From a phage, in sequence record PZ386980.1: a stretch of 64,000 nucleotides of DNA; one strand, given 5' to 3'. Shown here piece after piece: positions 31,696 to 41,794 of this stretch (its first letter is position 1; each line of letters starts with the position of its first letter). Both the position numbers and the translations under genes were made by a program. Below the pieces are notes generated by a model. That model ran no database searches. It had not been told where the DNA came from and saw only the letters and a list, made by a program, of their open reading frames with translations.

Positions 31696-32282
31696 TGCAT
31701 TCCAATCACAAAAAATTGAGGACGAACTGTTTCACCTGTTTCAGCATTATAGCTTCGACAACAGTGTTGTACCGTTTTAATATGGATATTGTAAATCTTA
31801 TCCATATCAGGAGCTTTAATAGGTTCGTCAATTATGTACAAGATACGAGAAAGCGATAACCCACGGAATTTATGACCTTCATTACCGATAAAACTACGGA
31901 CAGAATCAGTAAATAAACGGAATCGAATATCATCGCTAGAATAACGAGAAAATTCTTTTTCAATGTTGCCAGCAGAAATTTTAGCGTAAGCTGAAGTATT
32001 AGAAAGAACAATAACTGTTCCGCCATCATACAGCCAATTAGCAGCAAAGTTAGTCACAGCAATTGATTTACCGGATTGACGTCCACCATCTATACGAAGT
32101 GTGCAGTACTGTTTGAGCACATCTTCCATTGGTGGAAGATAATCATTCTTACAAATTTCTTCTACTCTAGCATCAGAATGGTGTGTAAAAGCATTCATCA
32201 GGGATAGATAAGGACCAGTTAAAAATGTTCTCATTTTATTCTCTCTAAGTTTGGGCCATTCCGTGGCGCATGAATTGTCCAT
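31692..32282 (-). CDS. Small P-loop NTPase
   Basis: Walker A GGRQSGKS and Walker B ILYIIDE. Confidence 0.55.
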   Translation of the reverse strand: MDNSCATEWPKLRENKMRTFLTGPYLSLMNAFTHHSDARVEEICKNDYLPPMEDVLKQYCTLRIDGGRQSGKSIAVTNFAANWLYDGGTVIVLSNTSAYAKISAGNIEKEFSRYSSDDIRFRLFTDSVRSFIGNEGHKFRGLSLSRILYIIDEPIKAPDMDKIYNIHIKTVQHCCRSYNAETGETVRPQFFVIGMQ

Positions 32283-32375: not shown

Positions 32376-32849
32376 TTATTTGAACGATTTAACGTACTGA
32401 ATAGAACCCTTACTATTCACAAAGGCAATTTTACCATTTTTATTATACATGGTAGCAGTACGCTGATAACCATAGGTTTGTTTACCAGATTGATAACCAA
32501 CTAATGCAAAATTATCTTCACCCATTTTATTCTGTTTAGCGCGAATGCGTTCATGACCATGTGCCATAAGAACCTTAGCATCACCAGTTGCAATGGATCG
32601 ACGAGTTTTTTCATCTTCAACTGCATTAACAAAGTCGTCAAATGAATCAAATTTAGCATGAGATTTATTATACAATTTTCCATCTACTGCATAATTATAT
32701 CCCTGTACATCCATCTCAACTTCTGTACCATCATCCAATACAGCAGTAATTTTTTGACCTTTTTTAAATTTCAAAAGATCAGTAAAAGATTCAGCAATAA
32801 TTTGAGAATTAATAGCTGCTTCAGTGATAAATTCTTGATATGTTTTCAT
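32376..32849 (-). CDS. Internal (head-packaged) protein with capsid-targeting sequence
   Basis: 157 aa; N-terminus MKTYQEFITEA matches the T4 internal-protein targeting pattern; lies upstream of denV rather than between denV and e. Confidence 0.7.
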   Translation of the reverse strand: MKTYQEFITEAAINSQIIAESFTDLLKFKKGQKITAVLDDGTEVEMDVQGYNYAVDGKLYNKSHAKFDSFDDFVNAVEDEKTRRSIATGDAKVLMAHGHERIRAKQNKMGEDNFALVGYQSGKQTYGYQRTATMYNKNGKIAFVNSKGSIQYVKSFK

Positions 32850-32858
32850 GGGTTTCCT

Positions 32859-33275
32859 TTAAATGTAAATATTTTTACCGTAATACTTATACCAATGTGG
32901 TTTCATTAAAATTTTTTCATCAAGTCGTTGTTGACTCAATTTAATAGCTGATTTGCATGGATTATAATCATTTTTCCATTCTATTGGAATATCGCTGATG
33001 TCAGGAACTTCAGTATCTTTTATACTGAACCCGCGTTTTAAGCATTCCGTTATAATGTCTAATTGACGCTTTCGCAAAAATTCTAACTTATCGTAAAAGA
33101 ACGTAACATGACCAGAACCTAAAATAAACTCGGAAGATATTTTAAAATCTTTAACGCGCTTACCGTTTGCCACATGCTTACGAACTATACCAAAAACACG
33201 CGGCAATTCACGGTATTCTGCGATTAAATGTTGATCAGCAAGTTCAGATACTAAAGTCAAATTAATACGAGTCAT
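32859..33275 (-). CDS. denV: Endonuclease V (pyrimidine-dimer DNA glycosylase)
   Basis: 138 aa; [29 protein letters not shown] matches recalled T4 DenV. Confidence 0.93.
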
Positions 33276-33297
33276 TTTATCCCTCCAAGTAACTGTG

Positions 33298-34303
<1,006 letters not shown>

Positions 34304-37730: not shown

Positions 37731-37833
37731 TTTTGGGGAATTCTAGGGCAGGGAGGGGAAATCAAAGGATAGGATAATATATTATAAAGGGTAGAAACTA
37801 AATGATGTCTAGAGAGGCCTGGAAAGGCCTAGA

Positions 37834-37868
37834 TACCAAAAAGCCCCAACCTTTCGGCTAGGGCTAAG
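37834..37868. repeat. 35-nt direct repeat, copy 1 (hairpin-forming) just 3' of ip gene
   Basis: taccaaaaagccccaacctttcggctagggctaag; 32/35 identical to 38393..38427. Confidence 0.75.
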
Positions 37869-37872
37869 AATG

Positions 37873-38346
37873 TTATTTGATTTGTTTAGCAGACCAAATG
37901 CGGTCTTTAATAATTTTTTGAATGTCTTCAACATACTCAAGAGAGTGAGCATGTGGGTTATCTTTGAAACTATAAGCACGAGCTAGTTTTTGGCCTTCAG
38001 TTTTGATTACTAAAAGCTCTTTAAGGATAGCTTCATATTTGGAGATAATTCCTTTAACAATATTTTTCTCTTGTGCGACTTTAGGATCTGCTTTAGGAGC
38101 AGGTTTACCCGAAGCCTTTGCAAAAGCAGCGCCAGTAGCAACTAAACTTTTCCAGGCCATACTAACTGCATTTCCCGTAAATCCTTCCGCTTTCATGTCG
38201 CGTGCGAACTGGAATCGCGATTCATCAGAAGCATCTTTGTAAGAATATTTACCCGCTGCAATGGCTGCTTTTGCGACAGCTTGAATTTCGGTGCTAGATG
38301 CTTCATTTAACACCGCTTCATTTAAAAATTGAGTATATGATTTCAT
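37873..38346 (-). CDS. Internal (head-packaged) protein with capsid-targeting sequence
   Basis: 157 aa; N-terminus MKSYTQFLNEA; Ala/Lys-rich; flanked by direct repeats; TATAAATA late promoter upstream. Confidence 0.7.
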   Translation of the reverse strand: MKSYTQFLNEAVLNEASSTEIQAVAKAAIAAGKYSYKDASDESRFQFARDMKAEGFTGNAVSMAWKSLVATGAAFAKASGKPAPKADPKVAQEKNIVKGIISKYEAILKELLVIKTEGQKLARAYSFKDNPHAHSLEYVEDIQKIIKDRIWSAKQIK

Positions 38347-38386: not shown

Positions 38387-38394
38387 TATTTATA
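38387..38394 (-). promoter_or_regulatory. Late promoter TATAAATA for ip gene
   Basis: Exact TATAAATA on minus strand ~40 nt upstream of start. Confidence 0.5.
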
Positions 38395-38427
38395 CCAAAA
38401 AGCCCCAACCTTTCGGTCGGGGCTAAG
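38393..38427. repeat. 35-nt direct repeat, copy 2, 5' of ip gene
   Basis: taccaaaaagccccaacctttcggtcggggctaag. Confidence 0.75.
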
Positions 38428-39103: not shown

Positions 39104-39180
<77 letters not shown>

Positions 39181-39184
39181 TATT

Positions 39185-39259
39185 TGGCGGACATGCATGG
39201 ATTCGAACCATGGACCAATTGATTAACAGTCAACTGCTCTACCACTGAGCTACACATCC
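39185..39259 (-). tRNA. tRNA-Asn (anticodon GTT)
   Basis: Manual cloverleaf: anticodon loop CTGTTAA, T-arm CATGG-TTCGAAT-CCATG, encoded CCA; acceptor stem has two G-U pairs. Confidence 0.7.
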
Positions 39260-39263
39260 AAAT

Positions 39264-39350
39264 TGGTGGGGAGTGATGGAGTCGAACCACCCGAGTCGCA
39301 ATGACAATGAATTTACAGTCCACACCGCTACCTCTACGGGATAACTCCCC
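39264..39350 (-). tRNA. tRNA-Tyr (anticodon GTA), class II with long variable arm
   Basis: 87 nt; perfect 7-bp acceptor stem GGGGAGT/ACTCCCC, anticodon loop CTGTAAA, 15-nt variable arm, encoded CCA. Confidence 0.7.
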
Positions 39351-39362
39351 TAATTCATAATT

Positions 39363-39437
39363 TGGTGGCCCTGGGTGGAATTGAACCACCATCTGGCGAT
39401 TATGAGTCGCTTGCTTGAACCTTCCAGCTACAGGGCC
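39363..39437 (-). tRNA. tRNA with CAT anticodon (Met, or Ile if lysidine-modified)
   Basis: Acceptor GGCCCTG/CAGGGCC, anticodon loop CTCATAA, T-loop TTCAATT, encoded CCA. Confidence 0.75.
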
Positions 39438-39438
39438 T

Positions 39439-39514
39439 TGGTGCTGATTGACGGAATCGAACCGCCGACCTTCTCATTACAAGTGAGTTGCTCTACCTAC
39501 TGAGCTAAATCAGC
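39439..39514 (-). tRNA. tRNA-Thr (anticodon TGT)
   Basis: Acceptor GCTGATT/AATCAGC, anticodon loop CTTGTAA, T-loop TTCGATT, encoded CCA. Confidence 0.85.
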
Positions 39515-39519
39515 AAAAC

Positions 39520-39609
39520 TGGCGGAGGTGATAGGATTCGAACCTATGAATCGCCGGAGCGACTGCCGGTTTTCAAGACCGGTGCATTCAACCACTCTGC
39601 CACACCTCC
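39520..39609 (-). tRNA. tRNA-Ser (anticodon TGA), class II
   Basis: 90 nt; anticodon arm CCGGT-CTTGAAA-ACCGG, long variable arm, T-loop TTCGAAT, encoded CCA. Confidence 0.85.
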
Positions 39610-39615
39610 AAATAT

Positions 39616-40266
39616 TTATATATTGTTAATTTGATTTAGAATTCTTTTTGCTTGAGTATGACTTACGCCAATATGCTTAGCATATTTAGATAATTCACCA
39701 CGCTTAGAAAAATCATATAATTTAGAAATTTCTATTCTTCTTTTTCTTTCATCCGCAGAAACTTTTGCTTCGTTTGCTTTTGCTATTTTACGTTTAGCTT
39801 CTTGAGAATGAGTTTTACCAGCAAAGCCATTCTTCATTAATCCATTTGAAGACCATCCTTTTAATTTTCCGTTAGAATGTGCCTTTTTAACACCCAATGA
39901 AATTAATTCGCGCTGCTGATCTGTCATAGGATAATTATTTATATGATCCCATCCACCTTCACCGCCAAGTTTTAAATTATACACATCTGGTCTATTTAAA
40001 AACTCTTCTGTAACAATATTTTTCTCGGCTTCAAGCATAGATTCTTTATCATCAAAATACTCTAATATTTCTTTAGAAAAATTTTCTATACCATATTTAT
40101 CTTGGGCTCTTTTTAATAATTTACCAGAACCCATATATCCATCATCTAAATTTTCGGTAGAATGCACACCAATATAAATTTTATTATTAATTTTATTTGT
40201 TATTTTATAAAGATAAAAATGCATATCAGTCCCTAATAAAGAACTGAGCGTCTCACGACGAGTCAT
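39616..40266 (-). CDS. segB: GIY-YIG homing endonuclease (SegB-like) inside the tRNA cluster
   Basis: 216 aa; FYLYKIT...KIYIGVHS...GYMGSG GIY-YIG motifs, basic C-terminal half; sits between tRNA-Gly and tRNA-Ser. Confidence 0.7.
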   Translation of the reverse strand: MTRRETLSSLLGTDMHFYLYKITNKINNKIYIGVHSTENLDDGYMGSGKLLKRAQDKYGIENFSKEILEYFDDKESMLEAEKNIVTEEFLNRPDVYNLKLGGEGGWDHINNYPMTDQQRELISLGVKKAHSNGKLKGWSSNGLMKNGFAGKTHSQEAKRKIAKANEAKVSADERKRRIEISKLYDFSKRGELSKYAKHIGVSHTQAKRILNQINNI

Positions 40267-40270
40267 AAAT

Positions 40271-40344
<74 letters not shown>

Positions 40345-40349
40345 AAATT

Positions 40350-40436
40350 TGGTGCGAGAAGTGGGACTCGAACCCACAAGGAAATCATTCCGCAGCATTT
40401 TAAGTGCTGTGCCTTTACCAATTTGACCATTCTCGC
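40350..40436 (-). tRNA. tRNA-Leu (anticodon TAA), class II
   Basis: 87 nt; anticodon arm CAGCA-CTTAAAA-TGCTG, long variable arm, encoded CCA. Confidence 0.85.
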
Positions 40437-40437
40437 G

Positions 40438-40510
40438 CTGGGAATAAAGGACTCGAACCTTTGCATCCTGGAATCAAAATCCAGTGCCTTACCAACTTGG
40501 CTAATTCCCA
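40438..40510 (-). tRNA. tRNA-Gln (anticodon TTG); 3' CCA not encoded
   Basis: Acceptor TGGGAAT/ATTCCCA, anticodon arm CTGGA-TTTTGAT-TCCAG, T-loop TTCGAGT; only 2 nt separate it from tRNA-Leu. Confidence 0.8.
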
Positions 40511-41492: not shown

Positions 41493-41550
41493 TAATAGTA
41501 TCACAACTAAAACCCTATGTAAACAACTTTGTGAAATTATTTTAAATCTT
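41493..41550 (-). promoter_or_regulatory. T4-type early promoter
   Basis: UP element, -35 GTTTAC, -10 TACTAT. Confidence 0.5.
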
Positions 41551-41794
41551 CTAATCGTTTCTTCATCTTAGAACCATTTTTAGCGATTTCTCCTGCGTCA
41601 GAGCATAATGCTAAAAGTGCTTTAACTTTAGTTTGGTCTCCTTTAAAAGACGAAGGATCGACTGCAGCAGCAAGTTCTTTAATACGAGAGAAAAGACGCT
41701 CAGCTTCAGCTAAAGCCATTCCAAGCTTTACTTCCATACCATGAGAAGATTCAGTGATAATAGTTTCTGTAGCAAACTCTTTATAAGTTTTCAT
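41537..41794 (-). CDS. ipI: Internal protein I-like (capsid-targeted, candidate anti-restriction)
   Basis: 85 aa; N-terminus MKTYKEFATE; position between tRNA cluster and 57B as for T4 ipI. Confidence 0.7.
   Translation of the reverse strand: MKTYKEFATETIITESSHGMEVKLGMALAEAERLFSRIKELAAAVDPSSFKGDQTKVKALLALCSDAGEIAKNGSKMKKRLEDLK

Follow-up and report, generated by a model that had tools for sequence, protein, structure and literature searches.

We found that the open reading frame (ORF) at positions 32376 to 32849 of the window, by which we mean the whole 64,000-nucleotide stretch of phage DNA analysed here, is Ip4, an ordinary gene that has already been named, annotated and surveyed. There is nothing undiscovered in this ORF, as it corresponds to RB51ORF129 and to the phage K3 protein Ip4 (UniProt Q38388). 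The initial annotation had taken it for an internal-protein gene from its sequence; this observation is correct, and the underlying match is far from what chance would give. The best explanation of the features described below, and one that we consider probable, is that Ip4 is an interchangeable internal protein of T-even phages which is packaged into the head, injected with the DNA and likely to act against host restriction.

Positions 25000-49999 of the window are 100% identical to Enterobacteria phage RB51 (FJ839693 / NC_012635, positions 57145-82144) and likewise to phage RB68, and phage Ac3 is 100% identical over 2.8 kb around Ip4. Given the match to RB51, the window is a segment of a Tequatrovirus genome for which public annotation exists. 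The existence, name and position of Ip4 are accordingly not new and will not surprise specialists, and the suggestion that it acts against restriction is the current working hypothesis of the field and has been partly tested already. The features discussed in the following sections are listed in Table 1.

Table 1. Features of the window in the neighbourhood of Ip4 and at the other two ip-like loci, in order of position
Feature	Position	Strand	Evidence or remark
Conserved GC-rich, apparently structured element, about 124 nt, directly after the Ip4 stop codon	32253..32376	minus	3' cassette junction; 5' flank of vs.8
Ip4 CDS (RB51ORF129), precursor of 157 aa	32376..32849	minus	ORF list, RB51 annotation, Pfam, PHROG
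Linker, codons 11-20, with a second possible protease site at its end (I-A-E20, then S)	32790..32819	minus	conservation of E20
Capsid-targeting sequence MKTYQEFITE, codons 1-10, ending in the gp21 motif I-T-E and followed by Ala	32820..32849	minus	match to T4 IPII/IPIII
Ribosome-binding leader AAAAATATTTACATTTAAAGGAAACCC, overlapping the last denV codons	32850..32877	minus	alignment with T4 ipII leader; 5' cassette junction
denV (endonuclease V)	32859..33275	minus	Pfam Pyr_excise, RB51 annotation
e-denV intergenic region, 59 bp; site of ipIII and ipII in T4, empty here	33276..33334	none	no ORF
e (lysozyme), first gene of a probable late transcript e-denV-Ip4	33335..33829	minus	Pfam Phage_lysozyme, annotation
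T4-type late promoter TATAAATA upstream of e; nearest exact one upstream of Ip4	33856..33863	minus	promoter search
RB32ORF132c-like ORF with CTS-like start MKSYTQFLNE, then A	37873..38346	minus	CTS scan; PHROG 2280, unknown function
Exact late promoter TATAAATA, about 40 nt upstream of the 37873 ORF	38387..38394	minus	promoter search
Ip5, 85 aa, at the T4 ipI locus between 57B and tRNA.4	41537..41794	minus	annotation; PHROG 3499 "internal head protein"

Identity, leader and distribution of Ip4

The ORF opens with ATG and encodes a protein whose N-terminus is MKTYQEFITEAAINS; the RB51 record labels it Ip4 ("internal virion protein; similar to T2, RB70 Ip4"). It is matched end to end by the Pfam family PF24183 (DUF7412; residues 1-157 against a profile of 158 positions, 318.7 bits with a cut-off of 27) and by PHROG 3155, which is described as an "internal virion protein" (E = 1.2e-101). 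Its sole structural neighbour among predicted viral structures (BFVD) is the same phage K3 protein, Q38388. The Ip4 proteins of T2, K3, RB70, RB14 and AR1, all members of DUF7412 / PHROG 3155, amount to one protein with that of RB51 (98-100% identity) and have its leader and its hypervariable locus adjoining e in common with it. T2 has no denV, so that its Ip4 gene comes straight after e, while RB51 has denV between e and Ip4. The mature protein is computed to be mildly basic (pI about 9.1) and to have a mass of about 15-16 kDa, or 16.5 kDa after the first cut.

Homologues of Ip4 were found by tblastn in 471 phage records. Identity reaches at least 95% in T2, RB14, RB3, AR1 and several hundred other phages of Escherichia, Shigella and Yersinia, and is about 68-72% in T4-like phages of Klebsiella and Salmonella. 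An exhaustive HMMER search with the mature domain against 1.84 billion representatives returned only five clusters (at the 50% clustering level), at least three of which bear a CTS-type leader, and yielded no bacterial or other non-phage relatives that would hint at a function. PADLOC gave no matches, and literature searches on Ip4, IpIV or DUF7412 found nothing functional; one preprint uses T2 ipIV merely as a control locus.

The initial annotation had read the start of the ORF, MKTYQEFITEA, as the capsid-targeting pattern of T4 internal proteins, and this reading is borne out: the protein has 10 of its first 11 residues in common with T4 IPII and IPIII (MKTYQEFIAEA), the I-x-E prohead-protease site included. 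At the DNA level, the ribosome-binding leader and CTS codons of Ip4 align with those of T4 ipII, T4 ipIII and T2 Ip4. The processing site that it had proposed to look for is likewise present, as the motif I-T-E10 followed by A, at which cleavage is predicted. Among 14 clusters of the Ip4 family, M1, K2, F7 and E10 are invariant, and distant relatives (37-42% identity) bear a variant leader, MNF(E/K)(Q/D)FLNES, in the form MNFEQFLNES or MNFKDFLNES. Since the leader is kept while the body of the protein diverges, with these four residues retained and a diverged version present even in the distant relatives, it is under selection. E20 is also invariant, with I, L or M at position -2 in 14 of 14 family members, and the motif [ILM]-x-E20 before S or A is conserved; this second motif suggests that Ip4 may be cleaved further. 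A motif of the same kind, I-T-E and then A, occurs in the sequence of T4 IPI at residues 17-19. IPI is cut at this site.

An AlphaFold2 model of Ip4 computed from 14 sequences is of moderate quality (pLDDT 74, pTM 0.68). It places both cleavage motifs on an N-terminal helix, which is followed by a mixed alpha/beta body, and the alignment of the 14 clusters has about 60 invariant positions in the core. Profile and single-sequence searches gave no PDB match to Ip4, and IPI* (PDB 2JUB) was not among the structural matches; nor did we find similarity in sequence or fold to the characterised inhibitors IPI*, Ip2 and Ip3. As judged from the model, the fold is an orphan like those of other internal proteins and offers no clue to mechanism.

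A separate observation concerns a metagenomic contig from a distant T4-like phage (L007, 2794 bp), in which four neighbouring ORFs, distributed over both strands, all have CTS-like leaders (MNFEQFLNES, MNFQRFLNEA, MSFKKYLDEQ and MKFSEFLNES); one of the four is a relative of Ip4 in DUF7412. To judge from these leaders, the contig is a dense island of ip genes.

Two further ip-like genes had been proposed in the window, at 37873 and 41537. A six-frame scan of the 64 kb for CTS-like starts returned exactly these two ORFs and Ip4, and the same three are the top tblastn matches to the T4 CTS 11-mer. The gene at 41537 is Ip5, which also occurs in T6, T2 and PP01. The ORF at 37873 encodes 157 aa and carries no label other than 'hypothetical' in 40 of 40 records sampled across the ranking. 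Relatives with as little as 35-40% identity retain both its start and, at an invariant E15, a second [LM]-x-E motif. Terminator-like direct repeats of 36 nt bracket it (37833-37868 and 38392-38427), and the corresponding site in T4 holds one copy of this repeat. The ORF makes a good candidate for an unannotated internal protein, probably carried on an inserted cassette with a duplicated terminator. Elsewhere in the same part of the window, a homing-endonuclease gene of segB type (GIY-YIG; 39616-40266, minus strand) lies inside the cluster of tRNA genes (39107-40510), which, unlike that of T4, includes tRNAs for Asn and Tyr and lacks one for Pro.

Gene order between e and vs.8

In the direction of transcription the T4 order is e-ipIII-ipII-denV-vs.8 and that of RB51 is e-denV-Ip4-vs.8, with the Ip4 start codon 9 nt past the denV stop codon. 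The initial annotation had described the interval between denV and e as empty here and occupied by ipII and ipIII in T4, which is what we found; it had also placed Ip4 upstream of denV and regarded the ip locus as rearranged. The first of these two descriptions holds in plus-strand coordinates only: e, denV and Ip4 are all encoded on the minus strand, so that it fails in the direction in which they are transcribed, where Ip4 comes after denV. The second stands in so far as the position differs from that in T4, the two gene orders having been compared and found not to be identical. What occupies the position is, however, a non-homologous ip gene within the same e-vs.8 interval, ipII and ipIII are absent, and the layout is widespread.

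No homologue of the mature parts of T4 IPI, IPII or IPIII was found in the 64 kb window (all E > 0.1), and by BLASTP the similarity of Ip4 to IPII and IPIII ends after the leader. We had considered Ip4 as a displaced copy of ipII or ipIII and rejected this, as beyond the leader there is no similarity to either. The RB51 layout is at least as common as that of T4, since Ip4 is found in 471 phage records and IpIII in 261, and 414 records are colinear with the whole 2.8 kb segment vs.8-Ip4-denV-e-nudE. BASEL phage Bas42 has e-denV-Ip4 as RB51 does. Other arrangements of the interval are e-Ip4-vs.8 in T2, e-Ip4-IpIII in Klebsiella phage SmallBear, and e-Ip4 followed by another ip gene in Salmonella phage Melville. 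A distant metagenomic relative of Ip4 (37% identity) is preceded by a gene whose match to Pyr_excise, the denV family, is weak.

Both junctions of Ip4 have counterparts in T4. On the 5' side, the 25 nt ahead of the RB51 Ip4 start codon (AAAAATATTTACATTTAAAGGAAAC) match the leader of T4 ipII and overlap the final codons of denV. In T2, by contrast, Ip4 is preceded by sequence of the T4 e-ipIII intergenic region. On the 3' side, a GC-rich block stands immediately behind the Ip4 stop codon, and T4 has a block of about 97% identity to it just past the stop codon of denV. Because the 5' and 3' junctions are shared, the interval appears to behave as an array in which non-homologous ip genes and denV are exchanged. 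The difference between RB51 and T4 is thus, as read from these alignments, the replacement of cassettes within one hypervariable interval rather than a rearrangement of the same genes. Ip4 would have come to adjoin denV by a swap of non-homologous ip cassettes between e and vs.8, in which the ribosome-binding leader together with the CTS codons may have served as the 5' exchange arm and the conserved GC-rich element as the 3' arm.

The overlap at the 5' junction can also be seen in the denV product, which ends in ...GKNIYI in RB51 and in ...GKAIYA in T4 (the latter translated from the T4 DNA end GGTAAGGCGATTTATGCATAA). The last codons of RB51 denV (32859-32877) consist of ip-type ribosome-binding leader sequence, which marks the recombination joint within denV.

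The GC-rich element at the 3' junction

The element that follows Ip4 has a GC content of about 50%, compared with roughly 35% for the genome. It is present in 1002 phage records, mostly unannotated, at a length of about 124-145 nt. Further copies lie in T4 (L002, 3820-3943), T2 (L003, 3474-3597), L010 (59-202 and 596-729), L012 (542-685) and L013 (567-689). Helices that show compensatory changes flank an invariant core, CCTGTRATAAGGTCGAGCC...GCGGTAA. With a covariance model that we built, one copy was detected in the window (121 bits) and 34 copies in 35 loci.

The proportion of paired cells is 88.6%, compared with 83.1 +/- 0.5% in shuffled alignments, and the covariation score is 0.181, compared with 0.094 (in both cases 0 of 500 shuffles reach the observed value); these figures need to be interpreted cautiously, as the alignment was fitted to the structural model and they therefore lean toward structure. 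In slid controls, 22-41% of cells are paired. One pair occurs as A-U, U-A, U-G and C-G, and the closing stem of the 5' hairpin shows the compensating forms GGGAA/UUCCC, GGGAG/CUCCC, AAAGG/CCUUU, AAAGC/GCUUU, AAAGA/UCUUU and GGGG/CCCC. No Rfam family corresponds to the element; the only alignment obtained, to sroH, is non-significant (E = 8.9).

In T4-like phages the element follows the final gene of the e-ip-denV block and lies just ahead of vs.8. Two Klebsiella phages have a copy between a pair of ip genes, and one of the two, K65, has an ip gene with a copy on either side; a diverged copy occurs in a Vequintavirus near tRNA genes. The element may serve as an arm for recombination, function as an RNA, or do both.

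The T4 annotation treats the element as the first 39 codons of vs.8. We considered whether it could be the true 5' end of that gene and rejected this, as the extended reading frame meets a TAG codon in RB51 and is disrupted in other phages by indels (6, 8 and 12 nt), and the base pairs co-vary. In RB51 and most of its relatives vs.8 starts with MRTFLTG or MKFLTP, downstream of the element. T4 vs.8 (219 aa) thus appears to be over-extended at its 5' end, through the element (window 32234-32282; L002 3790-3913).

Predicted pathway and role of Ip4

Immediately upstream of Ip4 we found no exact late promoter but only variants with one mismatch, and no terminator-like site on the minus strand lies between the late promoter upstream of e and the end of Ip4. 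Ip4 would therefore be read within an e-denV-Ip4 transcript, late from the TATAAATA promoter; early read-through is also possible. T4 ipII and ipIII likewise have no exact TATAAATA of their own in the equivalent region.

From the leader, the cleavage motifs, the promoter and the basic mature protein we infer the standard pathway of T4 internal proteins, namely targeting to the core, trimming by gp21, retention in the head and injection. The 10-residue N-terminal CTS would bring the precursor into the scaffolding core of the prohead, where the gp21 prohead protease would cut after Glu10 (I-T-E before A) and possibly also after Glu20 (I-A-E before S). The mature, mildly basic protein would remain in the head with the DNA and enter the host together with it. 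Packaging, processing and injection along these lines are highly likely; our literature searches found no proteomics that place Ip4 in virions or show its cleavage. In a new host, Ip4 would then act ahead of all phage gene expression. Phage P1 provides a parallel in its Dar proteins (DarA/DarB), which are packed in the head, injected with the DNA and shield it from restriction before gene expression, although P1 is an unrelated phage and the Dar proteins are much larger and act against type I restriction.

As to what Ip4 does there, the activity that best fits its relatives would be to bind and inhibit a type IV restriction enzyme of the host, a defence nuclease directed against glucosyl-hydroxymethylcytosine DNA. 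By analogy with these relatives, Ip4 is most likely an injected, stoichiometric inhibitor of some modification-dependent nuclease. The anti-restriction role is put forward with less assurance than packaging and injection, and taken by itself we give it even chances. The initial annotation had described internal proteins as hypervariable candidate anti-restriction factors, each perhaps directed at a different nuclease, and published work agrees with this: T4 Ip1, Ip2 and Ip3 are each specific to a single GmrSD type IV enzyme, which they inhibit without cross-protection (PMC12373910), and another internal protein, Bas37_0260, encoded at the ipI locus, inhibits McrBC (bioRxiv 10.1101/2025.11.20.689424). 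IPIII is active in the cytoplasm even without its CTS (PMC9391042). For Ip4 itself, a screen of ip4-10 with representatives of 15 GmrSD groups gave no reproducible inhibition (PMC12373910, Nature Communications). The same study found T2, which encodes Ip4, to be restricted nonetheless by the GmrSD enzymes of ECOR17 and ECOR21 (PMC12373910). Both results weigh against a quick assignment.

T4 IPII and IPIII (Ip2 and Ip3) resemble Ip4 in their near-identical CTS and cleavage motif, their similar ribosome-binding leader DNA, their place in the e-vs.8 interval, their basic mature proteins and their status as non-essential accessories. They differ from it in that the mature sequences are unrelated, and in that Ip2 and Ip3 have GmrSD targets while Ip4 has none assigned. 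T4 IPI* (PDB 2JUB), the inhibitor of the GmrSD of strain CT596, is comparable as a small, injected protein that is processed by the prohead protease and encoded at a polymorphic ip locus. Bas37_0260 also bears a CTS, has only this leader in common with the T4 proteins, and shows that internal proteins can target type IV enzymes beyond GmrSD; unlike Ip4, it is encoded at the ipI locus.

Ip4 could instead be a bulk protein of the core or associated with the DNA, which would fill the scaffolding core, neutralise the charge of the DNA and replace the missing IPII and IPIII, with no specific target in the host. Its basic mature form (pI about 9.1, as for T4 IPII and IPIII), the lack of an IPII or IPIII homologue in the RB51 window and the failure of the GmrSD screen to assign a target to Ip4 are all consistent with such a role. 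We consider it unlikely, however, as a folded-looking core with some 60 positions invariant across 14 clusters points to a surface for a specific interaction and not to a generic polycation, and all three T4 internal proteins once given this role proved to be specific inhibitors. That all internal proteins whose targets are known block type IV enzymes, be they GmrSD variants or McrBC, argues in turn against an injected Ip4 directed at another kind of defence, such as an abortive-infection or toxin-antitoxin system or a sensor of incoming DNA ends, or at a function of a competing phage. This alternative would accommodate the negative screen on the main GmrSD clusters and the orphan fold, and also the extension of the family to T4-like phages of Klebsiella and Salmonella, from which it follows that the target is probably widespread in enterobacteria; we nevertheless regard it as distinctly unlikely.

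The possibility that RB51 Ip4 is not packaged at all, its CTS-like start being a relic of recombination and the protein an ordinary early cytoplasmic accessory, is very improbable. The gene does stand fused 9 nt behind the early gene denV and is without a dedicated late promoter, but T4 ipII and ipIII, which are classic virion proteins, have no exact TATAAATA of their own either, and the leader is conserved in every member of the family, including distant members in which it has diverged.

The reading that we prefer, of Ip4 as a packaged and injected internal protein that likely acts against restriction, can be joined with the evidence on its surroundings into a broader one. The e-vs.8 interval would be a recombining array of cassettes made up of ip genes and denV, the 3' arm of about 124-145 nt would itself be a functional RNA, and Ip4 would inhibit a widespread enterobacterial defence not yet paired with any phage inhibitor. 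Taken as a whole this broader reading is tentative, and we hold it to be possible rather than probable. The RNA of the 3' arm may, for example, stabilise ip transcripts or direct their processing, or may regulate the vs.8-regB operon from its 5' side.

No phage molecule reaches the host cytoplasm before the internal proteins, and those characterised so far each disable a different type IV enzyme. Few of them are as widespread as Ip4, which is found in T4-like phages of E. coli, Shigella, Yersinia, Klebsiella and Salmonella. Identifying its target would probably bring to light a common defence system or else a novel mechanism of inhibition, and bears on the prediction of host range for therapeutic T4-like phages.
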